This document shows positions 749 to 51,792 of a stretch of DNA of 64,000 nt, piece by piece. Each line of letters opens with the position of its first letter. Position 1 is the first letter of the stretch. Below the pieces are notes generated by a model. The model did not search any database. It saw only the letters and a program-made list of their open reading frames with translations, and was not told the origin of the DNA. Source of the DNA: Escherichia phage phT4A; the sequence record NC_055712.1. The stretch is one strand, 5' to 3'. The position numbers were made by a program, and so were the translations under genes.

Positions 749-1538
749 ATGACTCACTTGAAAAAATTCAAAGAATTTCTGACCGAAGGTAAAACCCTCG
801 CTCGTACCGTAGCACGTGGTCAACGCGCTAAAAACTTCCGATAAACATTCAATCGGTTTTCTTCACTTCAAACATGGTTCTGATTTCGAAGTTTTAGCAC
901 CGGATTCTCACGATCTGGCATACTTCGGTAAAAACATTGTACGTTTGAAAGGTATGACTACTGGTAAAGTTCAAGCGGCTTATGTCGATTGGGCTAAAGG
1001 TACTGTTTCTTTCTACAGTGGCAATCCGGATGATGATCTGGATTTCGACAAACCAGAAAAATTCAAAGCTGCTACTCTGTATGAAGAGGCGGAAGAAAAT
1101 CTGGATCTGTATAACCAGTTAGCAGAAGATTTCGAAATCGAGATCCCTATGGATGAAGCTCTGGTGAAAGGTAAAGTTTACAAACTCCCAAGCAACGATA
1201 TGCGTCTTCTGTACACTGGGCGTTCTAAAACTAAAGCAAGCGGTGAATATGCAGTGTTTACCGTAGTTGATGCTTCCGGCAAACCTCGCCTAGTATCTGG
1301 TAAAAAATTCACCCAAGAATATAAAGGCGATATGGTTTCTAAACTGGTTCTGGCTGAATCCGAAGATCTGAATGAAGCGGCTAAAGGCATTCGCGAAAAA
1401 GTTATTGCTGTGATGGTGAAACGCGGGTTTAACGAAAAAGATGCAGAAAAGATGGTTGACAAAAACCTGAAAGATGCTATGAAAGTTAGACCTGGTGCGA
1501 CCCCTGGCAAACTTGCAGAAATAGTTAGCACCCTGTAA
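749..1538 (+). CDS. hypothetical early protein; frame interrupted at A5 tract 830-834
   Basis: ATG 749 with AGGAAA RBS gives a 31-codon ORF stopping at 842-844; the long ORF (816..1538) continues in the +1 frame with no RBS of its own. Removing one A from 830-834 fuses them (~263 aa). Flanked by promoters and terminator. No recognisable family. Confidence 0.5.
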
Positions 1539-1542
1539 AAAT

Positions 1543-1573
1543 AAAGCCCCTTCCTTTCGGTTGGGGCTTTTTG
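1543..1573. terminator. bidirectional rho-independent terminator
   Basis: Hairpin AGCCCC-ttcctttcggtt-GGGGCT (1545-1568) with A-run 5' and T-run 3'; between convergent genes; same sequence recurs at 36189-36222. Confidence 0.6.
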
Positions 1574-1574
1574 A

Positions 1575-2429
1575 TTAGTATTTGCTCCAGACTTTTTTTG
1601 CGCCGTAAGGTTTCCCTTTGGACATAAATTGCTGAGTCGGTAGCCAAACAGCTTTCGCCCAATCTTTAGGGGCAATCTCTGCTAATGGTGATTTGAGGTG
1701 TGATGGTAGATATGCTTTGATCATTTCTGTTGCGCCTCGCATACCTTTCACGTTACCCCAGTTAATTTTAAGCACGGTCTTGTTAGAGAGGCGTTTAGTG
1801 GATCCGTACCCTCGCTTCAATAACTCTTCTAAAAACTCCTGTCGTGCTCTGGGTGGCGCATAGTGCAAGTTCAAACCATAGAACACTAAGTTACCCGCTT
1901 TCGATCTTCCGGATCCTAAGAAAATGATCAGTGGAAATCTATCCCAATACGGCAGGGTGTCTTTATATTTTGCATCATATGCAAACGTGTACAGGCGACC
2001 CGTTGCTGGTTTTGCCACACGGTGTGTTTTGATACTGGTTTTGATGAAATTACCAAACCATTCTGTTGAATCTTTCTGTCGCTTTGCCGCCGATACACCA
2101 ACAGTGATCTTTTTCAGACTATTACGGAAATCGTTGATGATCTCGATCCCGTGTTTTTTACGGTAGTCATTACGTTTTTTACGGGCTTCTGTCTCTGCGG
2201 AACGTCGTTCAATCTCATCATCAATCTGTTTTTTGTAACGATGCATTGACTTTGTGAACGTTGCGTAGTTTAATCCCTCAGAATCGGCAAAACGTTTAGC
2301 AGAAACACCTTTCGTTTTTGCCTTACGGAATTTGATCCCCAGTTCAACCCAATCACTCAATTTGCGTTTGGGTGGTGCTTTGGGTTTATCCTCTTCCGCG
2401 ATGATCTCAAACTCAAAAATAAAACTCAT
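1575..2429 (-). CDS. gp2: gp2 DNA end protector protein
   Basis: 284 aa, size and position as T4 gp2 (274 aa); basic protein; synteny 3-2-4. Confidence 0.75.
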   Translation of the reverse strand: MSFIFEFEIIAEEDKPKAPPKRKLSDWVELGIKFRKAKTKGVSAKRFADSEGLNYATFTKSMHRYKKQIDDEIERRSAETEARKKRNDYRKKHGIEIINDFRNSLKKITVGVSAAKRQKDSTEWFGNFIKTSIKTHRVAKPATGRLYTFAYDAKYKDTLPYWDRFPLIIFLGSGRSKAGNLVFYGLNLHYAPPRARQEFLEELLKRGYGSTKRLSNKTVLKINWGNVKGMRGATEMIKAYLPSHLKSPLAEIAPKDWAKAVWLPTQQFMSKGKPYGAKKVWSKY

Positions 2430-2444
2430 GTTTCCCTCCAGGGA

Positions 2445-2912
2445 TTACTGACCTCGCCACCCAAAAACTTTTTTGAGTGATTCTTCTGTTACGATTTTGA
2501 ACTGCCAGCCTTTTTGACGGCATAGCTCATTTGCGGCTTTCCACTTATCAATATTAACTGTATAGGTGTAAAGAGCATCAATAAATTTCTTTTTATTGTG
2601 TACGTTGTTGTTTACTGGCTTCGGTGGAGGCATGGTTTCTTTAAGGGGCTTAACCTCCCAAAGATATGTAGTACCATTTTCCATTTCCACATAGAAATCC
2701 ATGTAATAGCGTCTTCTCTTACCGTCTGCATTGCAGAAATACGGGATCACTATACATTCAGAATTCCAACGTTTTACGTGTGGGTTTTTATCCAGCCACT
2801 TCATAACGTAGCGCTCCCACGATGACCTATACGTAATCTTTCGCGGATCGCCTTTATACTTCTGTATGTTTTCGGGTACAAACGACCCTTTATACGTCTG
2901 TCTTCCAGCCAT
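2445..2912 (-). CDS. gp4: gp4 head completion protein
   Basis: 155 aa (T4 gp4 150 aa); synteny between gp2 and gp53. Confidence 0.75.
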   Translation of the reverse strand: MAGRQTYKGSFVPENIQKYKGDPRKITYRSSWERYVMKWLDKNPHVKRWNSECIVIPYFCNADGKRRRYYMDFYVEMENGTTYLWEVKPLKETMPPPKPVNNNVHNKKKFIDALYTYTVNIDKWKAANELCRQKGWQFKIVTEESLKKVFGWRGQ

Positions 2913-2962
2913 TGCGTAAATCCTAAATAGAATAATATAACGTTTAGATAGGGGAACTTATC

Positions 2963-3517
2963 GTGCTATTTTCATACTTCCCGCCTGTTGATTACAAAGG
3001 CACCCAGACAACTGATATTTTCCGAGACTATCGATTTTATTTTAATCGTGTGATTGGAAAATATAAAACCCGTAGTTACCAGATAACAGGCACACTACGA
3101 CCTGAACAACTTGCAGAATCATTATATGGAAACCAGCAATACTACTGGATCCTGTTGATGCTTAACTCTGTTTATGACCCTTTCTATGGTTGGATCTCCG
3201 ATCAGGAAGCCGCGTATCAGTGCGCTATACAGCGTTATTCTGAGGTTGGCGGTGAACAGGTTCTGTATCATGTAGATGAAAACAACAACAAGTATTATAA
3301 CCTTGTCGAAGACCCCAATAACCCTGGTCATTGGTATGACAAAGGTGACAAACCAATGCTGTATTTACAGTATCAAGGTGTATTAGCTCCTGTAGATATT
3401 TATGAAGATGCAGTGTTGCAAAATGAAGCAAAACGAACAATAAAAATCATTAGTCCGTCTGACATCCAGGCGTTTCTGAATGATTTTATTAAAGAAATGG
3501 AAAAGGCTAACTCATGA
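2963..3517 (+). CDS. gp53: gp53 baseplate wedge subunit
   Basis: 184 aa (T4 gp53 196 aa); immediately upstream of and overlapping gp5 start. Confidence 0.75.
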   Translation: MLFSYFPPVDYKGTQTTDIFRDYRFYFNRVIGKYKTRSYQITGTLRPEQLAESLYGNQQYYWILLMLNSVYDPFYGWISDQEAAYQCAIQRYSEVGGEQVLYHVDENNNKYYNLVEDPNNPGHWYDKGDKPMLYLQYQGVLAPVDIYEDAVLQNEAKRTIKIISPSDIQAFLNDFIKEMEKANS

Positions 3518-5283
3518 AATTAGGCGGAAATTTACACTCCCCTTTCTTTGATGGGGTGGTTGAAAACGTTGATGATCCGCGCGGGTTGGGCCGTGTTCAA
3601 GTCCGTGTATTTGGACAACACCCAGCCCAAAAACAAAAATCCGATGCAATCGGTGTTCCTGTTGAAGATTTACCCTGGATGATGCCTATTCAGGATATTA
3701 GAAGCGCTGCGATCTCTGGTGTGGGCTTCTCTCCAACTGGTATCACTCGCGGATCCTTTGTTGTTGGTTATTGGCGTGACAAATGGCACCAAGATGGTAT
3801 GATAATTGGTACTGTCGCTGGTGAATATGTCGAACAACCAGACACACAGAAAGGTTTTTGCGATCCTATGGGTGAATACCCTCGCTATGTTGGTAACGAT
3901 GTTAACTCCCTTGCTTTAGGTGGTTTGAAAGGCAAAGGATCATCAAGTGTCATCATTCGTGATTCAAACACAAGCATAGCAGTAAACCCAGACGATCGCC
4001 CACTGGATGAGATACCAGAAGATAACCGCCCTGATACGGGTGGATTTACGATCGAAAAGATGCTCAAGCAGGATGAGGGGATCCGTACACGATGGTATAC
4101 AGACAGTGAAGGATATCCGACAATCGGGATCGGGCATTTGCTTATCCGCGAAAAGACTCGCGACACTGCAAAAATTAACGCTGCGATCAGTAAAGCGGTA
4201 GGTCGAGAAGTAACAAACGGAACAATCACGGCAGAAGAGGTATCAACCTTATTTGCTCAAGATTTAGCCAAAGTAAGATCTGATATTCAGAGAACCGCTA
4301 ACGTCCGTGAAGTGTATGTGAACCTCAACCGTCCTCGTCAAATGGCGATCGAAAACATGTCGTTTCAAATGGGCGTCGGTGGTGTTGCTAAATTCACCAA
4401 TACCCTGAAAGCGATGAAAAATGAAGATTGGCAAGCGGCTTATAATGGTCTTCGAAATTCACTGTGGGCTAGTCAAACTCCAGGCCGTTCTTCTCGCGTG
4501 TCTAAAATAGTCCTCACGGGCAACCTTGAATCATATGGGGTACAAGTACCAGATCCGGAAGGGCGCTCTCTGAGTGCTGCTTACGCTGCGTATAACGGTG
4601 CTACATTGCTGGCGGCTAGTCCGGAAGATCCTTTTACTCCTGGTGATACCCGTGTGATGTTTGAAGAACCAGCATCATCTTATAATGCTGAATATCCGTA
4701 CAATATGGTTTTTGAATCGAGATCCGGACACATTCAGGAATTCGATGATACCCCAGGATACGAACGATATAACCGTGTTCACCCAGCAGGGAGTTACGAA
4801 GAAATTCGCCCGGATGGAACCCGCGTTGTTAAAATCGTAGGGGATGATTATCAAATTGTGATGCAGGGCCGGAAACTCAACGTTAAAGGCAACTTGCAGG
4901 TAGTTATTGAAGGCGACGCATTCATTTACAACATGGGTAACGTTCAACAAACGGTTGATGGTAACGTAACTGAGTTTGTTCGTGGCAACGTTCAACAAAC
5001 GGTTGAAGGTGAGTACGTTGGCCTGATTAAAGGCAATGCTGAACTAACTGTAAACAAAGATGCAACAGTTAACGTTGATCAGAATCTTACCGCAAATGTG
5101 AAACAGAATGCAACCGTGGCTGTAACAGAAGACGCAACGGTCACTGCAAAAAATGCGAAAATTGAGATTGAAGAAACGATGGATATCGGTGCTAAAGATA
5201 TCAATATCAAAGCAACGAATAACACGTTTATTGATTCTGGCGCATTAACAAAAATCACTGGCGGCACCGTCCAAGTGGGGTAA
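3514..5283 (+). CDS. gp5: gp5 baseplate hub subunit and tail lysozyme
   Basis: 589 aa; N-terminal OB region (GRVQVRVFGQHP), T4-lysozyme-like domain (GYPTIGIGHLL...), C-terminal beta-helix with VxGxxxxx octapeptide repeats. Confidence 0.9.
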   Translation: MKLGGNLHSPFFDGVVENVDDPRGLGRVQVRVFGQHPAQKQKSDAIGVPVEDLPWMMPIQDIRSAAISGVGFSPTGITRGSFVVGYWRDKWHQDGMIIGTVAGEYVEQPDTQKGFCDPMGEYPRYVGNDVNSLALGGLKGKGSSSVIIRDSNTSIAVNPDDRPLDEIPEDNRPDTGGFTIEKMLKQDEGIRTRWYTDSEGYPTIGIGHLLIREKTRDTAKINAAISKAVGREVTNGTITAEEVSTLFAQDLAKVRSDIQRTANVREVYVNLNRPRQMAIENMSFQMGVGGVAKFTNTLKAMKNEDWQAAYNGLRNSLWASQTPGRSSRVSKIVLTGNLESYGVQVPDPEGRSLSAAYAAYNGATLLAASPEDPFTPGDTRVMFEEPASSYNAEYPYNMVFESRSGHIQEFDDTPGYERYNRVHPAGSYEEIRPDGTRVVKIVGDDYQIVMQGRKLNVKGNLQVVIEGDAFIYNMGNVQQTVDGNVTEFVRGNVQQTVEGEYVGLIKGNAELTVNKDATVNVDQNLTANVKQNATVAVTEDATVTAKNAKIEIEETMDIGAKDINIKATNNTFIDSGALTKITGGTVQVG

Positions 5284-5287
5284 TTAA

Positions 5288-6910
5288 ATGATTATGGATT
5301 ATGAATCAATAATTGATGGAATTATGCAAAATTATCANNNNNNNNNNNNNNNNNNNNNNNNNNNNNNNNNNNNNNNNNNNNNNNNNNNNNNNNNNNNNNN
5401 NNNNNNNNNNNNNNNNNNNNNNNNNNNNNNNNNNNNNTGCAAATATACGGGTATGCAGGTTAACACCAACGCAGATACAAGCATTCCTCCTGTTCCTCCT
5501 GCAATGCCTTCCACTTATGGGGCATTACCGAGTGAATTAATCCGTGCTGATATTTCGTGCATTCCGGCAACTGTTGGTTTCGCATATACAAATATCAGTG
5601 ATGCTATGTTACAGGCATGGAACGAAACCCGTAATACGTTCAAGCTACAGTTTAACATGTTAACGGGTGCTGTACAGAATGGATTCGGGATCGCGACGAT
5701 GTTTGATGGTTTATCCGTATCGATGGAAGAAGTAATGGCGGGGGCGCTCGCATTGTCACAGCAAGCATGGCAAACTGCTATGAAAGTTTTCAGACAAGTG
5801 ATTAGCGCTGCATTTAACATTATCGGTGGTGCATGGGGATTGATTAATCAGTTCTTGCCTCAAGTAACCATCTTAGGTGTTGCGATCAACATTTACGATC
5901 TGGTGTTTGGTGATAATTCTGTTCAGACTTTGAAAGATGCGTTTAATGCAATCATCAAATCCGGACAACAAACATATGAAACCGTCATAAACGCAATATA
6001 CGGGGCCATAGGAAGCGCATACAATTACTCTGTGGAATATGTCAAAGCTGGCGCTCGCGACCTTGTGGATGCGTGTAGCGCGTTATTTGATTGGTGTTTA
6101 ACGATGTTCCAAAACGGTTGCGTTGCATTAATCGACTTATACGGTCGGATCATGCAAACATGGGCTATCCCTCCGGAAGTCCCAAACCCGTTATGGTCTG
6201 CGGTGCTGGCTATCCGTAACATCATGATGCAAATCAAACCACTTGATATAATTCTGGGCGGTAACTTCCCTGGATTCACTGCAATGGATTTGTATCAACA
6301 AGCACAGGAAAAAGTCAAGGCTTTTGTTGATGAGTCATACGAACAGATCCGAGGGCTTTATGAACAGGGGCAGGAACTTTACAAAACGTTAAAAAATCAG
6401 ATTTTCGAACGTGATACAATTCAGAGAAAATTCAACCAGTACTTAAACTGGATGTGGGGCGCTGTAACAGACGAAGCAACAGCGGCTTATCAATCTGCAT
6501 TGGATGCTGCAAACGCTGCTGTAGCTGCAACACAGGCCGCGTATGACGCTATACAGGAACAGATTGGATCTCTACAAGATGCAATGAAAGATACATACAG
6601 CATGGCGATGGAAGAATTAAAGAAATTGCCTTTGATGAGTACAATAAACGAGTTTTTAGGCTTCTGTGGTGTCGCATTTGACGATCTTCTCAAGTCATAT
6701 GAAAATGCGATTACTGGTGCTCAGTCTCTGTACAAAAATTTCATTGATAGTTCTCGCTCGTTTAAAGATCACTGCAAAGTAATCTATAACCAAATTTGTA
6801 CGTTGGCGTTGAGTAAAGTCACACAATATGTGAATAAATTGCTGTCTCTCATAGGATTAGCAATCAACTTTGGTTCGATTAGTGTATGTGTTCCAGTACT
6901 GAAATACTAA
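5288..6910 (+). CDS. hypothetical large helical protein with hydrophobic segments (ORF crosses 100-N gap; 5' part uncertain)
   Basis: Post-gap ORF 5438-6910 (~490 aa) is alpha-helical in composition with long hydrophobic stretches (e.g. ISAAFNIIGGAWGLINQFLPQVTILGVAINIY; C-terminal LLSLIGLAINFGSISVCVPVL) and an Ala/Gln-rich coiled-coil-like segment; no T4 counterpart recognised at this position. Confidence 0.4.
   Translation: MIMDYESIIDGIMQNYXXXXXXXXXXXXXXXXXXXXXXXXXXXXXXXXXXCKYTGMQVNTNADTSIPPVPPAMPSTYGALPSELIRADISCIPATVGFAYTNISDAMLQAWNETRNTFKLQFNMLTGAVQNGFGIATMFDGLSVSMEEVMAGALALSQQAWQTAMKVFRQVISAAFNIIGGAWGLINQFLPQVTILGVAINIYDLVFGDNSVQTLKDAFNAIIKSGQQTYETVINAIYGAIGSAYNYSVEYVKAGARDLVDACSALFDWCLTMFQNGCVALIDLYGRIMQTWAIPPEVPNPLWSAVLAIRNIMMQIKPLDIILGGNFPGFTAMDLYQQAQEKVKAFVDESYEQIRGLYEQGQELYKTLKNQIFERDTIQRKFNQYLNWMWGAVTDEATAAYQSALDAANAAVAATQAAYDAIQEQIGSLQDAMKDTYSMAMEELKKLPLMSTINEFLGFCGVAFDDLLKSYENAITGAQSLYKNFIDSSRSFKDHCKVIYNQICTLALSKVTQYVNKLLSLIGLAINFGSISVCVPVLKY
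5338..5437. other. assembly gap (100 N)
   Basis: Run of N. Confidence 0.95.
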
Positions 6911-6941
6911 ATAGTCGAATGATCAAGAGGAATTTATAATA

Positions 6942-8867
6942 ATGGCTACTGCTAAGACTAAGACTGTCAAAAAACAGATTAACCAAATCCCCGATATTTT
7001 TATCGGGGGTACTTTCGAAGAAATTAAAACAGATCTGATTGATTGGCTGGGTGGACAAGAAGAGTTTAAGGATTACGATTTTTCCGGCTCGCGAATGAAC
7101 GTACTGATCGACCTTCTGTCGTATGCTACTCTTTATATTCAGCAGATGGGTAACACGGCTCTATTTGAATCGTTTATTCGCACGGCTGCATTGCGTAGTT
7201 CTGTTGTACAGTCTGCTCAAGATCTGGGATATATGCCAGATTCTCGCACGGCTGCAAGCACAGCAGTAATGATTACGGCTGCTAACCCACTGACCCCAAC
7301 ATCGATCCGTATCCCGCGCGGTACAAAATTCATCGGTACTGTAAAGAATACAGACAGTTATTCTTTTGTTGTATCAGATGACGTTGTTATCGTTCGTGAT
7401 AGTAATAACAACTATACATCAATGCTGAACCTGGTGCAAGGCCGTTTAGTTCGTACTGAACTAATTTATGACGGTTCGAGTATCCTGATCCGAGATCCAA
7501 ACATTGACCGTAGTCAGGTACGTTTAACTGTAAACGGCGCACAATGGGAAGACTGGACAAACGAAAGCATTGTAAACGCAACAGGCGCAAGCACGATTTA
7601 CTACATGCGTGAAACTGTTGATGGACATACCGAAGTTTATTTCGGTGAAGGTGAAGCAAGTCAACAAGTGGCGGGTGGTGCATTAACCGCTGAATATATC
7701 GGGGGCTTGAAACCTGCTAATGGATCGACTATCGTTATTGAATACCTGTCAACCGATGGGGAAGCGGCTAACGGTGCAAAAGATTTTATCTATGTCGATA
7801 CATTAACCAATATTAGCATCACTAACATCGAAGAAAACCCGACTAAATCCCCTGATTATGTCGGTGCTGATGGTGGTGGTGATCCAGAAGATATCGAGCG
7901 TATTCGAGAACTGGCCCCTGTTATGCGTGAAACACAACGCCGTTGTGTAACTGCATCGGATTATGAATCTTTCCTGTCTCACAGATTTGGTTCTATCATC
8001 CAGGCGGTACAGTGCTTTACTGATAACGAAAAACCCGGTTATGCTTTCATTTCTGTTAAACCAAAGTCAGGTTTGCGCCTAACATCGGTACAGAAAGAAG
8101 ATATGCAAACGTATCTTTCGAAATATAACCTCGCGACGATCACCCCGTCGATTATGGATCCTAACTATCTGTATATTGTGCAATCTGTAAAAGTAACGTA
8201 TGATATCAGTAAGTTGACGGAATCAGAGGAATGGTTACGCGGTCAGGTTATTTCGTCGATCGACTCTTACTATACTGACAACGTTGAAATTTTCAACAAA
8301 TCTTTCAGTGTATCTAAGATGTTGACTTATGTCGATCAGTCTGATACCTCTATTATCGGTTCGGAAGCAGATATTAAATTGCTCCGTGAAATTGACAACT
8401 ATTACAGCGCCCCTATGTCTGGGATCCATTTCTTGAACCAGGTGGAATCTAAATCAATCATTTCCAGTACATTCAAGTTCACCAACGGAGAAGACGAAAG
8501 TTATGATGTTCGTTATGCTTCTACGGAAATGGATCAGGATGGTAACGCAAAAATTGTAATAGGCCCGTTCAAGGATGGGGATATTTCGATTGCTGCTTAT
8601 ACAGGCGATGACTTTGAAAAATTAACAGATGCAGGAACCCGTAATAAATATTACGAAGTTGGATCGGTTTCTCATTACACCGATTTCATTATCTTTGACC
8701 TGGGCGTTCTGAACGTATCCGCCGATAGTTTCAGCGCTGCTTATATCGAGCTAACCGCAAAGCCTCTCGAAGAAACCATTTTTACTCGCGATGGATCGTT
8801 GATCGTGTTTGAAAATGACCTGCGTCCTCAATACACCACATTGACTATGAATCCTATCAGTCAATAA
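6942..8867 (+). CDS. gp6: gp6 baseplate wedge subunit
   Basis: 641 aa; clear similarity to T4 gp6 (IPDIFIGGTFEEIK..., VGADGGGDPEDIERIRELAP, C-terminal DGSLIVFENDLRPQY). Confidence 0.9.
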   Translation: MATAKTKTVKKQINQIPDIFIGGTFEEIKTDLIDWLGGQEEFKDYDFSGSRMNVLIDLLSYATLYIQQMGNTALFESFIRTAALRSSVVQSAQDLGYMPDSRTAASTAVMITAANPLTPTSIRIPRGTKFIGTVKNTDSYSFVVSDDVVIVRDSNNNYTSMLNLVQGRLVRTELIYDGSSILIRDPNIDRSQVRLTVNGAQWEDWTNESIVNATGASTIYYMRETVDGHTEVYFGEGEASQQVAGGALTAEYIGGLKPANGSTIVIEYLSTDGEAANGAKDFIYVDTLTNISITNIEENPTKSPDYVGADGGGDPEDIERIRELAPVMRETQRRCVTASDYESFLSHRFGSIIQAVQCFTDNEKPGYAFISVKPKSGLRLTSVQKEDMQTYLSKYNLATITPSIMDPNYLYIVQSVKVTYDISKLTESEEWLRGQVISSIDSYYTDNVEIFNKSFSVSKMLTYVDQSDTSIIGSEADIKLLREIDNYYSAPMSGIHFLNQVESKSIISSTFKFTNGEDESYDVRYASTEMDQDGNAKIVIGPFKDGDISIAAYTGDDFEKLTDAGTRNKYYEVGSVSHYTDFIIFDLGVLNVSADSFSAAYIELTAKPLEETIFTRDGSLIVFENDLRPQYTTLTMNPISQ

Positions 8868-8872
8868 TCGTT

Positions 8873-8905
8873 AACCCCTGTCTTCGGATAGGGGTTTTTC
8901 TTTTT
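8873..8905 (+). terminator. rho-independent terminator after gp6
   Basis: Hairpin CCCCTgtcttcggatAGGGG followed by TTTTTCTTTTT. Confidence 0.55.
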
Positions 8906-8912
8906 ATAAATA
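8905..8912 (+). promoter_or_regulatory. T4-type late promoter TATAAATA
   Basis: Exact TATAAATA about 36 nt upstream of gp7 ATG. Confidence 0.5.
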
Positions 8913-8947
8913 CGTGATATACATAACCGCAAATTTGGAGAAATATA

Positions 8948-13027: not shown

Positions 13028-13036
13028 GGAAAAACA

Positions 13037-16382: not shown

Positions 16383-16391
16383 GGATAACAC

Positions 16392-17777: not shown

Positions 17778-17790
17778 CAGAGGTTATTAA

Positions 17791-19543
17791 ATGATCATCG
17801 ACAAATTAAACCCGTTGCCGAAGATCCCGTTTGTTGATGGCGTCCCAGATGACGCCACGACTCAAACGAAGATTATTTGGATCAAAAACGGTGAAACTCT
17901 GGACGGTTCGCCAGATAAAGTGTCAAACACTGGTAGTCTTAACCGAACTGGTGTAAACATCCAGCAGAACGCGGTTCAGTTAGAACAAAATACCATCACC
18001 CATAATGATAAAATCAACGAAGTAATCGATCAGGTTAACTTGATTACTGAAAACATTGATGCTATTGGTGATGAGAGCGTAATCAAAAAAAGTTAACCAG
18101 TTGGATCAGGATGTTCAGGCATTAACTTTATCTAACACCCAAACACAGAACAAGGTAGCACAGTTAACCCTTTCTGTAAATGCTCAGAACGATGAAATTG
18201 GGGAATACGATCCAGAAAAGGATCCTAAACACCGCACAATTCGTAATGATATCATTTACATTAAGAAAGAAGTTGGTTCATATCCTGGATTTAACGTTGA
18301 TGGTGATGTTGACCCCTCTTCTACTGGTACTGGCCTTAAATACCGCGTACTGAGTAACCAACGTGCTATTTCTATGCAGGAAACTCGCATAACCAAACTG
18401 GAAGATGATTGGGCGCTTTCCGAAGTAGGACAACTGACAGAAGAGGTAAAAGAACTTCGTGCTGAAATGGGTGATTCTGGTCTTGCCACAACCCGATCAA
18501 TCTATGCGCGAATCAAGATCCTTGAGGATGGTTCTATTGTAATGCAAAATGAACTTGATGCGATTAATAGTTATATCGGTCGCACGTCAGGTTCAACCAG
18601 TTCCATTAACGATCGTGTGAACAGTCTGGAAAACTCCGTTAGTTCTCTGGCTACACAAATCAATGATCCGGTAACTGGTATCACTGCACAAATTGCAACC
18701 ATTAACGGTCAAATCGGTACGGCTTCTGCTCAGGGTAGTATCCGTTATGATATTGCGGAAACTAAACGCAGATTGATGGATATGGAAATGATTCTGGGTG
18801 AATCCGGCGATGATGGATTGCAGGGACAAGTTGCGATCTTAACTGGTGACGTTGGTGAAGATTCAGATCCTACCAGTATCAAAGGCCGTTTGAGTGTTGT
18901 TGAGGGTGAATTACGCACCAACACTAGCGCACTCTGGGAACTGCAAGGCGTTGTAGGTAACTCTTCTAGTGGCCTCGTTGCAACTAGCCAGCAGATTAAC
19001 AAAGAAATCTATGGTGATGGTGTTAGTTCCGATCCTGTTACTCGCGCTGGTTTGAAAACAACAACCCGCAACCTGTTCACTCAGGTAGGAGATAACTCCG
19101 AAGGTAACGAAACGGGCATTTATGCACTGATTGCCGACCTTACTAAACGTGTTGAGGATTTAGAAGCGTTGAACATTGCACAGGCACTTGCAGATCGCGT
19201 AACTATCGAAGATCTGAATGCTAAACTGGCTCTGTACATCAAAGAAGCTGACGCCGATCTCCGTTATGAGAGCAAAAACCCGCCTCTGTCATTCGGTACT
19301 AACCTAACTGGTGATACTGAATACACTACTGGCGATCCATTGTCTCTAAGCGTAACTATGAATGGTGGTGTTTCTCCGCTGTCTTACCAGTGGACGAAAA
19401 ACGGCGTAAACGTTGGTACTGATGCTAACACATTTACCATCGATTCGCTACAGCCTTCTGATTCCGGAACTTACAAAGTAACGGTAACTGATGCAAGCCA
19501 TAAAGTCATCGTTTCTGATGAACTGGCGATCACTGTCGCTTAA
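17791..19543 (+). CDS. wac: fibritin (wac), reading frame interrupted at A7 tract 18085-18091
   Basis: ORF 17791-18096 (101 aa, LPKIPFVDGVPDD...IIWIKNGETL matches fibritin N-terminus) and ORF 18101-19543 (+1 frame, RTIRNDIIYIKKEVG matches T4 RTIRNDLLWIKRELG) fuse if one A is removed; C-terminus is Ig-like rather than a foldon. Confidence 0.75.
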
Positions 19544-19551
19544 CGATTAAC

Positions 19552-19570
19552 AAGGGGCTTCGGCCCCTTT
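19552..19570 (+). terminator. hairpin terminator after wac
   Basis: AAGGGGCttcgGCCCCTT followed by TTT. Confidence 0.45.
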
Positions 19571-19581
19571 TGAGGATCTTT

Positions 19582-20508: not shown

Positions 20509-20517
20509 GGGGGAAAA

Positions 20518-21132
20518 ATGCAATTTAGATTATATCTAGTAGAGTTTAAAACTTCTACGGGAATAAAAATATATGGAGGTAAACGCCATTCTCCATTTAA
20601 TGATCCTAGACATGATTGTTATTGCGGATCTGGGGTATACATCAAACGAGCATTAAAAAAATATGGAAGAGAATGTATTGTTAATATACAATGGTCAAAA
20701 CCGTTTCCAAACAAGGATTTATTAGCGGAAGCCGAAGAATTACTTGTTGATGAGTTGATAGCATCTTATGATAATTGTGTTAATTTAGTTCGTGGCGGTA
20801 AAGGAGGTGCTTCTTTTTATAATCCAGAAGATAACCCTAATTTTGGTTCTAAACGATCTATTGAATCTAAAATAAAGATGTCAGAAAAGGCAAAAAATAG
20901 GGTTTATAGCGAGGAAGGACTAAAACGAAGACAGGAAGCCACTAGGGTCATGATTCAACACAGAAAGCCTCGTGATGTTTCTGGAAGCAAAAACCCAGCC
21001 GCACGAAGGGTAATTGTGGATGGAGTAGAATACTCAACATTGAAAGAATGTGGAGATCATTACGGGATAACTAAAAACTCCGTCTTTAGTCGAATAAAAT
21101 CTAAGAAATGGGAGGGATGGAATTATGCGTGA
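20518..21132 (+). CDS. GIY-YIG family homing endonuclease (Seg-like), free-standing
   Basis: 204 aa; N-terminal GIY-YIG-like YLVEF...IKIYGG and GSGVYIKRALKKYG (paralogous to the 33089 gene), NUMOD3-like basic repeats, C-terminal HTH-like VDGVEYSTLKECGDHYGITKNSVFSRIK; AT-rich; inserted between gp13 and gp14. Confidence 0.65.
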   Translation: MQFRLYLVEFKTSTGIKIYGGKRHSPFNDPRHDCYCGSGVYIKRALKKYGRECIVNIQWSKPFPNKDLLAEAEELLVDELIASYDNCVNLVRGGKGGASFYNPEDNPNFGSKRSIESKIKMSEKAKNRVYSEEGLKRRQEATRVMIQHRKPRDVSGSKNPAARRVIVDGVEYSTLKECGDHYGITKNSVFSRIKSKKWEGWNYA

Positions 21133-21871
21133 TTGGGATGATAATTTATTCGCACAGTTGGAATCTGGCGAAGGTGTTGATAATAGTTTAAAAACGGAAG
21201 TTACTAACAAATACGTTAACTGGTACAAGTATAACCCTACTCAACAGTTACATGATTCACTAACAGCCGAAGCAATTCAAATGAAATCTCCGGATATGTA
21301 TTACGTCCGTCGAGAATTTGTTAATATTGATAAAATTTTGGGTGAAGACCGTGAATCGAAGTTTACAAAATCGTGGAAAATTGCAGCATACATCGATTCG
21401 TATGCAAACTACGAAGGACAGAGAGACTTTTACAGCAAATTCGGTATGATGTCAAACGATGAAATGACACTTGTGATCAATCCTCGTTTATTTGCACATC
21501 AAACTGATGGCGGGATCCCTGTTCTGGGGGATTTGATTTATTTCCCTATGGATAATAGCCTGTTTGAAATTACATGGATTGAGTTTGATCCGTTCTTCCA
21601 GTTCGGTGATCGTCCTCAACGTAAAATCAACCTCGTTAAATTTATCTATACTGGTGAAGAATTGGATCCTAAACTGCAACGAAATGAAGGGATTAACCTT
21701 GCTCCAGATGCTGATCTGGATCTCGAACCTATTCGAAATCTTGATGGATTGGCTGATACCAATATTGAACAATACGAAGAAGATCAAGCCTTTGAAGATG
21801 AAGGCGATGAATTCATTGAATCGTTTGATGTTGTTAACGGACGCGGATCACCGTTCGCACAGTTCCCATAA
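21125..21871 (+). CDS. gp14: gp14 neck protein
   Basis: 248 aa (T4 256 aa); synteny between gp13 and gp15; start overlaps endonuclease gene end. Confidence 0.75.
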   Translation: MRDWDDNLFAQLESGEGVDNSLKTEVTNKYVNWYKYNPTQQLHDSLTAEAIQMKSPDMYYVRREFVNIDKILGEDRESKFTKSWKIAAYIDSYANYEGQRDFYSKFGMMSNDEMTLVINPRLFAHQTDGGIPVLGDLIYFPMDNSLFEITWIEFDPFFQFGDRPQRKINLVKFIYTGEELDPKLQRNEGINLAPDADLDLEPIRNLDGLADTNIEQYEEDQAFEDEGDEFIESFDVVNGRGSPFAQFP

Positions 21872-21874
21872 ATA
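21867..21874 (+). promoter_or_regulatory. possible late promoter variant CATAAATA
   Basis: 7/8 match to TATAAATA, about 80 nt upstream of gp15. Confidence 0.25.
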
Positions 21875-21951
21875 TAACCAGGGGAAACCCTATACATGTA
21901 AGGGTATAAGATTTCTCCTATACCCGCTTTAACCCATACAGGAAAAATAAA

Positions 21952-22772
21952 ATGTTTGGATTTTGGTATAATAGTTCGCTGCGAAATTATATTGTCTTGA
22001 TGGGTTGTCTTTTCAATCACGTGCAAGTTAAACGCATTCGCGGCGAACAAGAAAAATTTATCAAGGTTCCGATTACCTACGCATCAAAAGAAAAATTCCT
22101 GGCATCCATGAACAAGCTGAACTATGCATACAGTCAGGAAAATGTTGCTAAAACGGAAACAATTTTACCACGTATGAATCTATCCCTCGTTGATTTGCAG
22201 TATAACGCAATTCGTAAAACGGGGATCGCGGTAAACCAAAAAATGACGCAGTTACGCGCACCTGGAAAAACAGTAACGCAGTTTAACCCTGCTCCGTATC
22301 GTCTCATGTTCGAACTGGGAGTGTATACCCGTTACGAAGATGATGTGTTTCAGATCATAGAACAGATACTGCCATACTTCCAGCCGCATTTCAACTGTCG
22401 TATTACAGAATTACATAAAAACGACATTAAAATAGACCGAGATATTAAAATATCTCTGCAATCTGTTTCCCCTGATACCACGTTTGAAGGTGATACAACG
22501 ACACGGCGACACATTGAATGGTCTTTAATGTTTGAATTACAGGGCTACCTGTATCCGCCTGTTAACGAGATTAAAGGCGAGATCAGAACAGTATACACGG
22601 ATTTCTTTTCCAATATGAACCCGTTGGACAAAGACAATTTTGAATCCGTTGATGCTCAGGTGGATCCGGTTGATATGCCTATACAGGATTACACGGGAGA
22701 AGAATACGTTCAAACGTATGCTAATGATATCCCAATTCCTAGCGGTGATCAACCTCCTAAACCGAGGGGCCA

Positions 22773-22776
<4 letters not shown>
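21952..22776 (+). CDS. gp15: gp15 tail sheath stabilizer and completion protein
   Basis: 274 aa (T4 272 aa); synteny. Confidence 0.8.
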
Positions 22777-25116
<2,340 letters not shown>

Positions 25117-25132
25117 TAGAGGAAACTTAATA

Positions 25133-27124
25133 ATGGCTTTAATCTCTCCAGGCATTGAAACTAAAGAAACATCGGTACAATCTACCGTTGTTCGAAATTC
25201 AACTGGTCGTGCTGCTATTGTTGGTAAATTTTCATGGGGGCCAGCTTACCAGATCCGTCAGATTTCTAACGAAGTCGAACTGGTAAACTATTTTGGCTCC
25301 CCAGACAATGACACCGCTGATTATTTCATGAACGCTGTAAACTTTTTACAGTTCGGTCAGGATCTGCGTGTTGTTCGTGTCGTCGATAAAGAAGCCGCAA
25401 AAAACGCAACCGCGATCTATAATCAGATCAAAACCACGATCACCGCTGCTGGTTCTAACTATGCAGTAGACGATCAGATCAAAGTTAAACACAATAACGT
25501 TGTTATTGAAGAAGATGGTGTTGTTACCAGCGTTGATGATCAGGGTAAAATCCTGTCTGTGTTCATTCCGAGCACTAAGATCATCGCACATGCTAAACAG
25601 GTTGGTGTATATCCGGATCTATCTAGTGGCTGGACTACAGAAATCATTTCCAGTTCTTCTGGTGTTTCTGCTACGATTACAATCGACGGCGTAGAAGTTG
25701 ATCCGGGTATTACTCTGCTCAACCTTGATACCGCAAAAGAAACTATTCAGGCAACTGCTTTCCAGGAACTTTGCACCAAATACCAGCTACCGTCTGTTAT
25801 TGCAATTTATCCTGGCGAAATGGGTAGCACCGTAACGGTTGAAATTCTGTCTAAAGCTGCATACGATTCTTCGGCTGTCATTAAGTCTTATCCTTCTGGT
25901 AAGTCTGGTAAAAACAGCGGTCGCAGTTCGATGAACTTTGGCCCTCAGAATGATAACCAATACGCGTTTATCGTTCGCCGTGGTGGTATTATCCAAGAAA
26001 CGTTTATCGTGTCAACCGCTAAGGGTGATAAAGATATCTACGGTTCAACGATCTACATGGATGATTTCTTTGCAAACGGTGGTTCGCAGTATCTGTATGG
26101 TACGTCCCTAAACTGGCCTGTCGGATTCTCCGGCGTTCTGGAACTGGGCGGCGGTACTTCTGCAAACTCCACTGTAGGCGCTGATGAACTCATGGCTGGT
26201 TGGGATATGTTCGCAGATCGTGAATCTCTGCATGTTCCTCTGCTGATTGCGGGTGCTTGTGCTGGCGAAACTGCCGAAATTTCGTCTACTGTACAGAAAC
26301 ACGCTGTGTCTATCGGTGAAACCCGTTCAGATTGCGTTGTATTCGTTTCTCCGCCGCGTTCTGCTCTGGTTAATATCCCACTGGCTCAGGCCGTTGATAA
26401 CCTCGTAGAATGGCGTACAGGCTACAAAATCGGTAATACTACCCCAGTTGATAATAACATGAACGTAAGTTCAAGTTATGCGTTCATCGACGGTAACTAT
26501 AAGTTCCAGTATGATAAATACAACGATGTTAACCGTTGGATCCCGCTCGCGGGTGATATGGCTGGCCTCTGTGTTTATACCGATCAGGTATCGCAACCGT
26601 GGATGTCTCCGGCTGGCTACAACCGTGGTCAACTGCGTAACTGCATCAAACTGGCTATCGAACCGACCAACGCGCATCGCGATTCTATGTACCAGGTACA
26701 GATTAACGCGGTTACTGGTTTCTCTGGTGGTGCCGGATACATTCTGTACGGTGATAAAACCGCAACGACTGTTCCAAGCCCGTTTGACCGTATCAACGTT
26801 CGTCGCTTGTTCAACATGATCAAGAAAGACATTGGCGATAACGCAAAATATAAACTGTTTGAGAATAACGATGATTTCACTCGTTCTTCCTTCCGTATGG
26901 ATGCAGGACAGTATATGTCTAACGTTCGCGCTCTGGGCGGTGTATACGATTACCGTGTGGTTTGTGACACTACGAACAACACGCCGGATGTTATTGATCG
27001 CAATGAGTTTATTGCATCAATCTACGTCAAACCAGCACGTTCTATCAACTACATCACACTGAACTTCGTAGCAACCTCAACTGGTGCGGATTTCGATGAG
27101 TTGATTGGATCAACGTCAGTATAA
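25133..27124 (+). CDS. gp18: gp18 tail sheath protein
   Basis: ATG at 25133 with GAGGAAA RBS (MALISPGIETKETSV...); 663 aa (T4 659 aa). Confidence 0.9.
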   Translation: MALISPGIETKETSVQSTVVRNSTGRAAIVGKFSWGPAYQIRQISNEVELVNYFGSPDNDTADYFMNAVNFLQFGQDLRVVRVVDKEAAKNATAIYNQIKTTITAAGSNYAVDDQIKVKHNNVVIEEDGVVTSVDDQGKILSVFIPSTKIIAHAKQVGVYPDLSSGWTTEIISSSSGVSATITIDGVEVDPGITLLNLDTAKETIQATAFQELCTKYQLPSVIAIYPGEMGSTVTVEILSKAAYDSSAVIKSYPSGKSGKNSGRSSMNFGPQNDNQYAFIVRRGGIIQETFIVSTAKGDKDIYGSTIYMDDFFANGGSQYLYGTSLNWPVGFSGVLELGGGTSANSTVGADELMAGWDMFADRESLHVPLLIAGACAGETAEISSTVQKHAVSIGETRSDCVVFVSPPRSALVNIPLAQAVDNLVEWRTGYKIGNTTPVDNNMNVSSSYAFIDGNYKFQYDKYNDVNRWIPLAGDMAGLCVYTDQVSQPWMSPAGYNRGQLRNCIKLAIEPTNAHRDSMYQVQINAVTGFSGGAGYILYGDKTATTVPSPFDRINVRRLFNMIKKDIGDNAKYKLFENNDDFTRSSFRMDAGQYMSNVRALGGVYDYRVVCDTTNNTPDVIDRNEFIASIYVKPARSINYITLNFVATSTGADFDELIGSTSV

Positions 27125-27130
27125 CATGTA

Positions 27131-27148
27131 AGGGGCTGAAAAGCCCCT
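27131..27148 (+). other. stem-loop between gp18 and gp19 (no U-tract)
   Basis: AGGGGCT-gaaa-AGCCCCT; abuts late promoter. Confidence 0.4.
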
Positions 27149-27155
27149 ATAAATA
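27148..27155 (+). promoter_or_regulatory. T4-type late promoter TATAAATA
   Basis: Exact TATAAATA 18 nt upstream of gp19 ATG. Confidence 0.5.
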
Positions 27156-27172
27156 CACATAGAGGTTAGAAA

Positions 27173-27658
27173 ATGCTTACTGATATTGTACGCGCCTTTG
27201 AATCCGGTGATTTCGCACGTCCGAACCTGTTCGAAGTAGAGATCCCGTACCTGGGCAAAAACTTTAAATTAAAATGTAAAGCCGCTACTATGCCAGCGTC
27301 TACCGTTGAAAAAGTTCCGGTAGGTTACATGAACCGCAAAATTAACGTTGCTGGTGACCGTACCTATGATGACTGGACAATCACGGTATATAACGACGAT
27401 GCACACACAACCCGTGATGCAATCGTAGCATGGTCAAACATGCTGCATGGTATGGGTGAAGACATTACAGGGGATATCCCTGCAAACTACAAAAAAACCG
27501 CTACGGTTAAACAAAAAAACCGTAACGACGAAGTAACCGCCGAACATACCATTTATGGCCTGTTCCCGACCAACGTTGGTGAGGTTACTTTAGACTGGGA
27601 TAGCAACAACGAAGTGAGCACTTTTGAGTGTACTTTCGCGCTAGACTGGTGGGTTTAA
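27173..27658 (+). CDS. gp19: gp19 tail tube protein
   Basis: 161 aa; RAFESGDFARPNLFEVEIPYLG...MNRKINVAGDRTYDDWT nearly identical to T4 gp19. Confidence 0.95.
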   Translation: MLTDIVRAFESGDFARPNLFEVEIPYLGKNFKLKCKAATMPASTVEKVPVGYMNRKINVAGDRTYDDWTITVYNDDAHTTRDAIVAWSNMLHGMGEDITGDIPANYKKTATVKQKNRNDEVTAEHTIYGLFPTNVGEVTLDWDSNNEVSTFECTFALDWWV

Positions 27659-27662
27659 ACGC

Positions 27663-27670
27663 TATAAATA
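27663..27670 (+). promoter_or_regulatory. T4-type late promoter TATAAATA
   Basis: Exact TATAAATA upstream of gp20; followed by 5'-UTR hairpin GGGGTAGCAATACCCC. Confidence 0.5.
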
Positions 27671-27713
27671 TAGGGGTAGCAATACCCCTTATCATTATTT
27701 TTCGGAGTTGTAA

Positions 27714-29288
27714 ATGAACTTTTTTGGATTAGACAATGTGTTAGGGTTTTTCAAAAATTTCGCCAAACAGGATGAAATGGAATTTGAAGCCCAATTAAAA
27801 GATGATACAGGTTCGATTGCGCCTCCGAAAAATAACGACGGGGCGCACGAAATCGAAACGGACTTATCAAACCAGCGTTATTCTTCTGTGTTCCAACAGT
27901 TCTATTCCGGACAGGATCCGCGAATTCAGAACAAAACACAGCTAATAAATACATACCGTGGCATCATGACATACCCGGAAGTGGAAAACGCTGTTTCTGA
28001 AATCATTAACGAAGCGATTGTTAATGAACAAGGAAAAGATATTGTTACGATGGATCTTACTAAAACGAATTTTAGTAAAAATATCCAAGATAAGATCATG
28101 GAAGAACTCGATACCGTAATGAATATTCACGATTTCGATAACCGAGGCTCTCGTTTATTCCGTGATTGGTATGTTGATTCGCGTATCTATTTCCATAAAA
28201 TCATGCACAAAAATGAAGCTGACGGCATCAAAGAATTGCGCCAGTTAGATCCCCGTTGCATGGAACTGATCCGAGAATCGGTTACAGAAACCCTACCCGG
28301 TGGGGTTAAAATTTTCCGTGGCTATCGTGAATACTTCGTATACACCGCACCGAAAAACGGTTATAGCTACAACGGACAGATTTATAGTCACAATGACAAG
28401 GTAAAAATTCCTCGCTCTGCGATTGTTTACGCTCATAGCGGCCTTGAAGATTGCGACAACAACATTATAGGCTACCTGCACCGCGCGGTCAAGCCAGCTA
28501 ACCAGTTGCGTTTGCTGGAAGATGCTATGGTGATTTACCGTATTACCCGTGCGCCTGAACGTCGTGTGTTCTATATCGACGTAGGTCAGATGGGTGGCCC
28601 TAAAGCTACACAGTACGTAAATAACATTGCACAGGGCTTAAAAAACCGTGTTGTATATGACGCGAGCACTGGTAAAGTTAAGAATCAGCAAAATAACCTG
28701 TCAATGACAGAGGACTATTGGCTGATGCGTCGTGATGGTAAAGCAGTTACCGAAGTTTCAACGCTTCCTGGTGGCACTGCCTTCTCTGATATCGACGATG
28801 TTAAATGGTTTAACCGTAAGCTGTATGAAGCGTTGCGTATTCCGTTAAGCCGTATGCCTCGCGATGATGGCGGTATCCAGTTGGGTAACGATGGCGGTAT
28901 TACCCGCGACGAATTGAACTTTAGCAAATTTATTCGCGAATTGCAAATTCAATTCAACCCTGTTCTTGCGGATCCGTTAAAAACTAACTTGATCGCGAAG
29001 AAAATCATTACAGAAGATGAATGGGATGAAAACGTAAGTAAGATTGCTTTTGTATATCAGCAAGATTCTTACTATTCCGAAATCAAAGATATTGAGATTT
29101 TGGAACGCCGTTTAAACCTGATGGGCCAACTTGAAGGAGTGGTCGGCAAATATATCTCCCATAAATACGTAATGAAAGAAGTTCTCCGGATGTCTGATGA
29201 GGAAATTCAAAGCGAAGCCAAACAGATAGAAGAAGAATCAAAAGAAGAACGTTTTAAAAATCCAGAAGCGGAAGAGGAAAACTTTTGA
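27714..29288 (+). CDS. gp20: gp20 portal vertex protein
   Basis: 524 aa (T4 524 aa); synteny. Confidence 0.9.
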   Translation: MNFFGLDNVLGFFKNFAKQDEMEFEAQLKDDTGSIAPPKNNDGAHEIETDLSNQRYSSVFQQFYSGQDPRIQNKTQLINTYRGIMTYPEVENAVSEIINEAIVNEQGKDIVTMDLTKTNFSKNIQDKIMEELDTVMNIHDFDNRGSRLFRDWYVDSRIYFHKIMHKNEADGIKELRQLDPRCMELIRESVTETLPGGVKIFRGYREYFVYTAPKNGYSYNGQIYSHNDKVKIPRSAIVYAHSGLEDCDNNIIGYLHRAVKPANQLRLLEDAMVIYRITRAPERRVFYIDVGQMGGPKATQYVNNIAQGLKNRVVYDASTGKVKNQQNNLSMTEDYWLMRRDGKAVTEVSTLPGGTAFSDIDDVKWFNRKLYEALRIPLSRMPRDDGGIQLGNDGGITRDELNFSKFIRELQIQFNPVLADPLKTNLIAKKIITEDEWDENVSKIAFVYQQDSYYSEIKDIEILERRLNLMGQLEGVVGKYISHKYVMKEVLRMSDEEIQSEAKQIEEESKEERFKNPEAEEENF

Positions 29289-29531
29289 TGAAAGAATTTA
29301 TCGAAGCAATCAAAAGCGGTAATCTGGTGGAAGCTAAAAAAAACTTTTTACTCCATCATGGAAGACCGCAAAGAAGCGCTTCGTCACGAATTGCGCGTTG
29401 AACTTGCCGAAGCTGTACGCATCGAAGGCGAAGAAGACAAAGAAAAAGACGACGAAGGCGCTGATAAAGATGACGAAAATGGCGATAAAAAGCCAGCCGA
29501 GGATGATAAATCCGATAAAGATGATGAGTGA
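29288..29531 (+). CDS. gp67: gp67 prohead core protein, reading frame interrupted at A8/T5 tract 29336-29349
   Basis: ATG 29288 overlaps gp20 stop; MKEFIEAIKSGNLVEAKKNF then +1 frame SIMEDRKEALRHE...acidic tail ending 29531; fused length 80 aa equals T4 gp67. Confidence 0.6.
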
Positions 29532-33003: not shown

Positions 33004-33026
33004 GTTATTGAAAAATAACGATATTA

Positions 33027-33053: not shown

Positions 33054-33057
33054 TTTC

Positions 33058-33065: not shown

Positions 33066-33088
33066 GTGAAAACAATTGAGGCTATATT

Positions 33089-51711: not shown

Positions 51712-51764
51712 TCAACGTATGATCGAATTCGCAATAAAAATTCGATAGAAATTAAAAATATTGC

Positions 51765-51792
51765 TTGACCTAATGTGTAACTATGGTAATCT
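51765..51792 (+). promoter_or_regulatory. sigma70-type promoter TTGACC-16-TAATCT (extended -10 TGg)
   Basis: TGCTTGACC as at 456-464; 45 nt upstream of the 51838 gene. Confidence 0.4.

Follow-up and report, generated by a model that had tools for sequence, protein, structure and literature searches.

Three frame-splitting A-runs in a Slopekvirus genome are very probably indel errors of a draft assembly

Three conserved genes in the DNA analysed here, a stretch of 64,000 nucleotides referred to as the window, are each interrupted by a change of reading frame inside a run of A. These frame changes very probably arose as errors in base calling or consensus in a scaffolded, low-quality draft of an ordinary Slopekvirus genome. 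We favor an artefact because the extra bases are unique to the window, each gene is otherwise unaltered, and gaps and additional indel errors occur in the assembly. The true lengths of the runs would be A4, A6 and A7, presented as A5, A7 and A8 with one A too many in each, and in the real phage the 262-aa phrog_7322 gene (located behind early-type promoters), the fibritin gene wac, and gene 67 are most likely intact. The technical cause may have been, for example, low coverage combined with an indel-prone platform.

Three A-runs at the junctions of split genes

Each of the runs forms the junction between two plus-strand open reading frames (ORFs) in differing frames, with the pairs occupying 749..844 and 816..1538, 17791..18096 and 18101..19543, and 29288..29401 and 29358..29531. 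The runs and the parts of the genes on either side of them are as follows.

830..834, plus strand: A5 run, A4 in relatives; the added A puts a conserved 262-aa gene of unassigned function out of frame
749..844, plus strand: 5' fragment of the 262-aa gene; 28 native codons, 3 out-of-frame codons, TAA
831..1538, plus strand: 3' part of the 262-aa gene, read in the next frame; corresponds to residues 28-262 in the relatives
18085..18091, plus strand: A7 run in wac (fibritin), A6 in relatives
17791..18096, plus strand: fibritin 5' fragment; 101 aa, ending ...VIKKS and a stop
18086..19543, plus strand: fibritin 3' part; 100% identical to aa 99-583 in the relatives
29336..29343, plus strand: A8 run in gene 67 (prohead core protein), A7 in relatives
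29288..29401, plus strand: gp67 5' fragment; 18 native codons, then 19 out-of-frame codons
29337..29531, plus strand: gp67 3' part; 100% identical to the relatives over aa 17-80

The original prediction had placed the runs and the gene splits correctly to the base, and deletion of one A does restore all three frames as it proposed: translation of the edited window gives uninterrupted products of 262, 583, and 80 aa. Its further claim of a common +1 direction was borne out by alignment with three close relatives (VAC13, Roth22, and PTP25), in which the window carries a single-base insertion at each of the three runs. The pattern is not due to chance: of all the relatives' ORFs that reach 70 aa, no others are divided between two frames in the window. 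The A8 run, which is followed by a C and then by T5 at 29345-29349, is also the only homopolymer of at least 8 bases within the 64 kb.

Once repaired, all three genes resemble known phage families. The intact 262-aa protein is an end-to-end match to phrog_7322, a family whose function is not known; residues 1-28 of its 5' fragment are identical (100%) to the relatives, and sigma-70-like promoters lie upstream of the gene at 459-487 and 575-603. The Fibritin_C and Ig-like domains seen in intact fibritin lie within its 3' part, and repaired fibritin matches PF07921 (Fibritin_C) at 50.6 bits and phrog_1056 with E = 4.5e-164. Like T4 wac, the repaired ORF has the short tail fibre gene 12 on one side and the neck gene 13 on the other (T4 order 12-wac-13). 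In the repaired frame the junction reads ...DESVIKK followed by VNQLDQDVQALTLSNTQTQNK, with ...DESVIKKVNQLDQDVQALTLSNTQTQNK as an example of a junction-spanning peptide.

The intact 80-aa gp67 matches the Pfam family GP67 (PF17634) at 38.1 bits against a gathering cutoff of 27, covering positions 1-80 of 80, and gene 67 is flanked by the portal gene 20 and by gene 68 in the T4 order 20-67-68-21, such that both the full-length family assignment and the gene order are shared with T4 gene 67. The only unusual point relative to T4 wac and 67 is the C-terminal Ig-like domain carried by the Slopekvirus fibritin. The T4 core proteins that are non-essential for assembly are IPI-III, gp68, and gpAlt, a list from which gp67 is absent (PMC9958956), implying that gp67 is needed for T4 head assembly; a clonal phage with gp67 cut at codon 18 should therefore not propagate. 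The T4 prohead protease breaks gp67 down into small peptides (PMC9958956), and virion proteomics is consequently unsuited as a test for this protein.

Comparison with related phages

The window derives from a Slopekvirus (KP15/KP27-like T4-type Klebsiella phages) and exceeds 99% identity to more than 100 GenBank genomes. At each site we sampled approximately 100 GenBank records (the top 60 and a spread over the full ranking) out of 108-174 matching records, and every record listed spans 120 nt for a 121-nt query, corresponding to a run one base shorter, with no variation in run length at the three sites among the sampled records. For gp67, the records with the shorter span include the distant phages RB43, RB16, IME-CF2, and GAP161. 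None of the GenBank phage records is fully identical to the window across the sites, and the wac run pattern had 0 matches in a scan of genome contigs. Shorter runs were also found in five environmental contigs, two from IMG/VR and three from metagenomes, and in all five the gp67 run is A7. The two-frame layout is likewise absent, as every relative inspected encodes a single ORF. On both sides of every break the protein is 100% identical to that of VAC13 and PTP25, and no further disabling changes are present in the three genes, leaving the inserted A as the sole protein-altering difference.

The window-specific differences outside these runs were assessed by the same comparison. Across 59,017 shared columns, 134 substitutions are private to the window, 98 of them synonymous and 33 non-synonymous. 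Codon position 3 accounts for 100 of 131, and the pattern indicates strong purifying selection. Of its private indel events, six of seven break conserved reading frames. The private indels of VAC13, Roth22, and PTP25 are located between annotated genes, have lengths divisible by three, or affect short hypothetical ORFs or the divergent tail-fibre gene.

Two other candidates for assembly error were rejected. A G5/G6 difference at 47272, considered as a fourth homopolymer error, occurs only in VAC13, at a position between annotated genes. The segments 20523-21215 and 32996-33742, which appear as insertions relative to the three references and were considered as misassemblies, are present in other Slopekviruses and are GIY-YIG/I-TevI-type homing endonuclease genes.

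Gaps and indels in the assembly

The window contains four runs of exactly 100 N and a fourth broken gene, nrdG, that directly abuts one of them.

5338..5437, no strand: 100 N within a 688-aa gene after gene 5; 544 bp in relatives
51464..51563, no strand: 100 N starting 15 nt into nrdD; 4,951 bp in relatives
51564..51768, plus strand: nrdG 3' end, directly after the N gap
58844..58943, no strand: 100 N; about 930 bp in relatives
63346..63445, no strand: 100 N between ATGGCT and GGCTGATTTAGC, with edges that overlap by GGCT

The idea that these N runs are length-preserving masking was discarded, as three of them replace 544, 4,951, and 930 bp of the relatives' sequence. The relatives' DNA at the second gap holds nrdD, seven small ORFs, and most of nrdG, and that at the third runs from the end of the proximal-connector gene through the distal connector into the start of the distal tail-fibre gene. 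The GGCT shared by the edges of the last gap points to a contig break at the boundary of a repeat common to two tail-fibre genes. In nrdG, three indels that are private to the window and break the frame (-T at 51571/2, +A at 51684, and +AA at 51733-4) are all located within 170 nt of the gap edge, with no window-unique substitution among them. None of these extends an existing run: a T is lost, while the A and the AA are inserted beside A5 runs. The original suggestion that other homopolymer-containing ORFs may be affected is accordingly not supported within the window, where these nrdG changes are the remaining private frame-breaking indels.

The combination of features resembles known homopolymer miscalls in draft phage and bacterial assemblies (flow-based, long-read, or low-coverage), in which single-base run changes also split intact conserved ORFs, are unique to one assembly, and occur alongside N gaps and contig-end indels. 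It departs from typical miscalls in that run extension affects only 3 of about 810 A/T runs of at least 4 bases (2 of the 51 of at least 6 bases), that one of these is a short A4, and that all are over-calls of A. The over-calling proposed at the outset is thus supported, but its description as systematic is not, given how few of the A/T runs are affected. An overcall from A4 to A5 that survives consensus is uncommon on most platforms and counts against an artefact. All five insertion events, including the two in nrdG, add A on the plus strand and none hits a T-run, which could hint at a strand-specific process. As proof of a strand-specific biological process, this bias was rejected as not significant: given the counts of A- and T-runs, the all-A outcome for the three run events has a joint probability of about 0.4 and is compatible with chance.

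The significance of these observations is confined to annotation quality control. Automatic annotation of such a record would show truncated or split fibritin, gp67, and nrdG together with one conserved gene without known function, and the gaps would cost the annotation approximately 6.4 kb, nrdD included. Records of this type seed protein databases with false pseudogenes and "split genes", and the artefacts can be misread as recoding sites or as phage contingency loci, which were proposed only recently. Comparing private indels with private substitutions against close relatives offers a screen that requires no reads.

Alternative explanations

The original preference for an artefact over pseudogenes or programmed frameshifts is supported by the uniqueness of the extra bases, the intact protein flanking them, the implied requirement for gp67, and the marks of a draft assembly. 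One alternative is that the changes are real, having arisen by Streisinger-type replication slippage as the OFF states of a "contingency locus" that became the majority in the stock and knocked out at least wac and perhaps the 262-aa gene. We consider this unlikely. T4-type polymerases do gain or lose single bases in A-runs at a measurable frequency, and in T2, T4, and T6, runs of at least 6 bases yield +/-1 variants at about 3e-4 per population that revert approximately 1,000-10,000 times faster than point mutants (bioRxiv 10.1101/2025.10.21.683753). The phage contingency loci described by Gomez, Barrick & Waters (bioRxiv 10.1101/2025.10.21.683753) are, like the present sites, reversible +/-1 A-run switches inside ORFs of T4-type phages. 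Two of the three runs in the window derive from A6 and A7, so that wac (A6/A7) and gp67 (A7/A8) reach the 6-base repeat length used in that study, while the 262-aa gene (A4/A5) falls short of it.

Contingency-locus variants, however, are minority alleles (about 3e-4) unless selected, whereas here no listed isolate varies and phages outside the genus do not conserve the gp67 run. With variant frequencies of about 1e-4 to 1e-3, far below consensus, slippage would need three independent sweeps, and among more than 100 independent isolates no listed record shows length variation. One of these sweeps would have to involve gp67, which is implied to be necessary for T4 head assembly (PMC9958956). Replication slippage also leaves unexplained both the non-run indels beside a gap and the four N gaps.

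A narrower version, in which at least one of the three changes is real, is improbable in our assessment; the most plausible case would be the A6 to A7 change in wac, as an OFF state that swept through the sequenced stock. That gene loss is tolerated and of conditional use is plausible for wac and implausible for gp67. Fibritin is generally known to be non-essential in T4, where wac is dispensable under laboratory conditions. If the A7 in wac were real, the result would be a whisker-less Slopekvirus that reverts at high frequency.

Programmed or "saviour" recoding, in which a genuinely frameshifted gene would still yield full-length protein through a +1 ribosomal frameshift on AAA-AAA-A or through loss of one A by RNA-polymerase slippage, is highly improbable and, by its absent conservation, close to refuted. 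tRNA-Lys could re-pair in the +1 frame on the A7 and A8 runs, and RNA polymerase slips on A/T runs, with 8 A used productively in some IS elements and selection against slippage-prone A/T runs typically evident at 9 nt (PMC1088944). As in known transcriptional slippage and ribosomal frameshifting (Baranov et al. 2005, PMC1088944; Atkins et al. 2016, PMC5009743), the A-run is positioned at the exact point where the frames join. Unlike those systems, the layout is not conserved, being found in 0 of the relatives inspected, and the A5, A7, and A8 runs are all under the typical 9-nt slippage length, with A5 and A7 also below known efficient lengths. The shift required (+1, or -1 nt in the RNA) further differs from the -1 shift of the classical A-AAA-AAG site. 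In RB43, IME-CF2, and GAP161, the A-run of gp67 contains interruptions (AAAAAGCAA or AAGAAGCAA), and the protein frame is nonetheless retained. No stimulatory RNA structure was detected, as the 80 nt downstream of the runs fold no better than shuffles (z of +0.81, -0.01, and +1.39), and an Rfam scan of the whole window returned 0 matches.

It is equally hard to credit that the three genes are old pseudogenes, dispensable in this lineage, or truly split genes working as two polypeptides. A possible start codon does lie near each downstream piece (GTG at 816, TTG at 18101, and ATG at 29358). The exact truncated products (101-aa fibritin and 37-aa gp67) are absent from a collection of 153 billion gene positions, in which close relatives seem sparse, and a homologue search of the same collection with the fibritin fragment returned only two distant matches at 62-72% identity. 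A split is contradicted by the relatives, none of which shows such an arrangement, and decay by the 100% protein identity of both halves to intact relatives, with no added damage, and by the strong purifying selection evident in the private substitutions elsewhere in the window.

Three genes interrupted at A-runs

The window belongs to the genus Slopekvirus (KP15/KP27 group), T4-type Klebsiella phages, and follows the T4 gene order 3, 2, 4, 53, 5 ... 12, wac, 13, 14 ... 20, 67, 68, 21, 22, 23, 24. More than 100 GenBank phage genomes match each of three separate stretches, mostly at 95% identity or higher and often above 99%. The original prediction described a single-base frame change within a homopolymer in each of three genes, and all three runs lie exactly where it had placed them, each at the meeting point of two open reading frames (ORFs) in different frames:

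Site 1, 262-aa gene: A5 at 830-834; ORFs 749..844 (upstream) and 816..1538 (downstream), + strand
Site 2, wac (fibritin): A7 at 18085-18091; ORFs 17791..18096 and 18101..19543, + strand
Site 3, gene 67 (prohead core): A8 at 29336-29343, then C and T5; ORFs 29288..29401 and 29358..29531, + strand

Deleting one A from each run restores uninterrupted proteins of 262, 583 and 80 aa, as had been proposed. The 262-aa protein aligns end to end with phrog_7322 (function unknown), and the 80-aa protein covers the full Pfam GP67 profile (positions 1-80 of 80). Matches to Fibritin_C and phrog_1056 (E = 4.5e-164) identify the 583-aa protein as fibritin, which also has an Ig-like domain at its C-terminus. 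When every ORF of at least 70 aa from the close relatives VAC13, Roth22 and PTP25 was translated and searched against the window by tblastn, only these three were split between frames, and both sides of each break were 100% identical to VAC13 and PTP25.

The label "early gene" for the 262-aa gene appears reasonable because two near-consensus predicted sigma-70 promoters precede it in an AT-rich spacer (TTGACC-17-TATAAT, 459-487; TTGAAT-17-TATAAT, 575-603). This spacer (420-748) separates the 262-aa gene from the divergently oriented gene 3 side and carries repeated GATC-containing units as well as sigma-70-like promoters on both strands (10 found versus 3.3 expected). The VAC13 record in GenBank (L004) names the 262-aa gene "deoxynucleoside monophosphate kinase" (ORF28, 965-1753), a label without support from Pfam, and the 37-aa ORF27 (808-921) "tail tube protein"; both look like annotation carry-over errors.

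Run lengths in related phages and the origin of the extra base

Aligned over its whole length with the three relatives, the window has one extra nucleotide at each run, where the relatives have A4, A6 and A7 at sites 1, 2 and 3; this bears out the claim that the error has the same direction throughout. When the run was placed at the centre of a 121-nt query, all records listed, both among the 60 best and in samples drawn from throughout the 108-174 matching records, spanned 120 nt, and the other genera in the gene 67 sample (RB43, RB16, IME-CF2, GAP161) were also one base shorter. Pattern scans permitting any run length found the shorter form only, in two IMG/VR contigs (one of them KP15) and three contigs from metagenomes; the genome-contig scan for the wac run gave no matches. 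None of the sequences inspected carries the extra base. The gp67 run is broken up in RB43, IME-CF2 and GAP161 (GCT AAA AAG CAA or GCG AAG AAG CAA) with the A-K-K-x-F-Y-S-I-M-E-D-R frame kept, so that as a signal the run is not conserved.

We consider it very likely that the three frame breaks are artefact rather than biology. Real slippage mutations in the sequenced phage are an unlikely source, and most of the little weight they retain falls on wac, a gene that laboratory T4 can do without. T4-type phages do yield +/-1 variants in runs of at least 6 bases, named contingency loci, with rapid reversion (bioRxiv preprint 10.1101/2025.10.21.683753), but a consensus call would require a frequency three orders of magnitude higher than the roughly 3e-4 mutant reads per run measured there. 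Moreover, three independent sweeps would be required, one run is merely A4, and the isolates listed, out of more than 100, are uniform in length at all three runs. According to the T4 head review, the core proteins that can be dispensed with are IPI-III, gp68 and gpAlt, leaving gp67 among those required (PMC9958956).

Programmed +1 frameshifting or RNA-polymerase slippage is highly improbable, as the two-frame layout is not conserved, the runs fall short of the roughly 9 nt at which slippage is efficient in many bacteria (PMC1088944), the RNA downstream of the runs folds no better than shuffles, and an Rfam search returned no matches. Old pseudogenes or truly split genes deserve scarcely any credence, since the three genes show no further decay; no record of the exact truncated products was found, and a protein homology search gave only two distant, uninformative matches. 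The preference for an artefact over pseudogenes or programmed frameshifts is thus supported by an extra base that is unshared, the lack of decay and the draft state of the assembly.

Draft assembly and the distribution of indels

Four runs of exactly 100 N each, 400 N in all, interrupt the window:

5338-5437: replaces 544 bp of the relatives
51464-51563: replaces 4,951 bp
58844-58943: replaces about 930 bp
63346-63445: between ATGGCT and GGCTGATTTAGC, with overlapping edges (GGCT on both sides)

Because 100 N stand for 544, 4,951 and about 930 bp, the first three are gaps of unknown size and not length-preserving masks, and the four together show that the sequence is a scaffolded draft. The fourth lies at the start of a repeat of about 380 nt common to two tail-fibre genes; such repeat boundaries are the usual contig break points for assemblers. 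Lost in the second gap are nrdD, seven small ORFs and most of nrdG. The start of nrdD, the anaerobic ribonucleotide reductase gene, at 51449 (MKVEK; 51449-51463) runs straight into it; the phage itself may still have nrdD and the small ORFs that the assembly lacks.

Directly after this gap, the 3' end of nrdG (51564-51768) holds three frame-breaking indels within 170 nt, each private, that is, carried by one genome only among the window and its three relatives:

51571/2: -T
51684: +A, adjoining an A5 run
51733-4: +AA, adjoining an A5 run

Together they scramble the last 68 codons, and no existing run is made longer by any of them. The window-unique differences in this part of nrdG consist of these indels alone, without any private substitution. 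Errors at a contig end with falling coverage would be a natural explanation. nrdG is thus a fourth broken gene, absent from the original list; the expectation that other ORFs would be affected holds for it alone, its errors are of another kind, and the window has no further homopolymer-broken ORF.

The over-calling is accordingly not very systematic: three runs are lengthened, each an A-run and each by one base, among 538 A-runs and 272 T-runs of at least 4 bases (40 and 11 of at least 6), and no other homopolymer differs privately from the relatives over the 59 kb comparable. Calculated from the run counts, the probability that three affected runs would all be A-runs is about 0.4, and no strand effect can therefore be claimed. 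The underlying problem is general draft quality, with gaps and indel errors, rather than a systematic homopolymer bias.

Private differences over the 59,017 columns common to all four genomes
Window: 134 substitutions, 7 indel events
VAC13: 130 substitutions, 1 indel event
PTP25: 78 substitutions, 3 indel events
Roth22: 618 substitutions, about 7 indel events

Purifying selection is evident in the window's 134 private substitutions (98 synonymous versus 33 non-synonymous; 100/131 at third codon positions). Of its seven indel events, by contrast, six disrupt conserved frames; the exception is a 9-bp tandem duplication (CAGTAACAG) at 52277-52285, which stays in frame. In the relatives, private indels either have lengths divisible by three or are found between annotated genes (e.g. 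47272, 27170, 39684), in short hypothetical ORFs (36138) or in the divergent tail-fibre gene. Four knocked-out conserved genes should not be expected in a genome whose substitutions are so well filtered, and the indels therefore stand apart from the remaining divergence. The frame breaks are very probably not a real biological feature.

Other features of the window

The 52277-52285 duplication sits in an Ala/Pro/Val-rich linker of a 327-aa protein encoded downstream of nrdG. A 1-nt deletion private to Roth22 lies at window position 36138 (35140-35503 of the Roth22 record, L006), where its small hypothetical ORFs are annotated otherwise than in VAC13 and PTP25; it may represent a further frameshift in a relative, whether genuine or technical. 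A Hoc-like head decoration gene (39698-40231) encodes 177 aa versus 353 aa in all three relatives, an in-frame loss of 528 bp. Repeated Ig-like domains may really have been deleted here, or the assembler may have collapsed a repeat.

In the region 58944-63345 the distal tail-fibre gene is followed by a gene for its assembly and by a hairpin resembling a terminator (about 63270-63295). A second tail-fibre gene then starts (63341-64000), which shares 91.6% identity with the first over 382 nt. Because this second copy was not seen at the same position in VAC13, Roth22 or PTP25, this phage may have two cassettes encoding receptor-binding fibres.

Two free-standing homing endonuclease genes are also present:

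20518-21132: between neck genes 13 and 14
33089-33724: between capsid genes 23 and 24

Both encode an I-TevI-type DNA-binding domain, combined in one of them with GIY-YIG. Both are absent from the three relatives and present in other Slopekviruses, with matches to Earwig_ER32 (99.5%) and the KP15 SegD gene.
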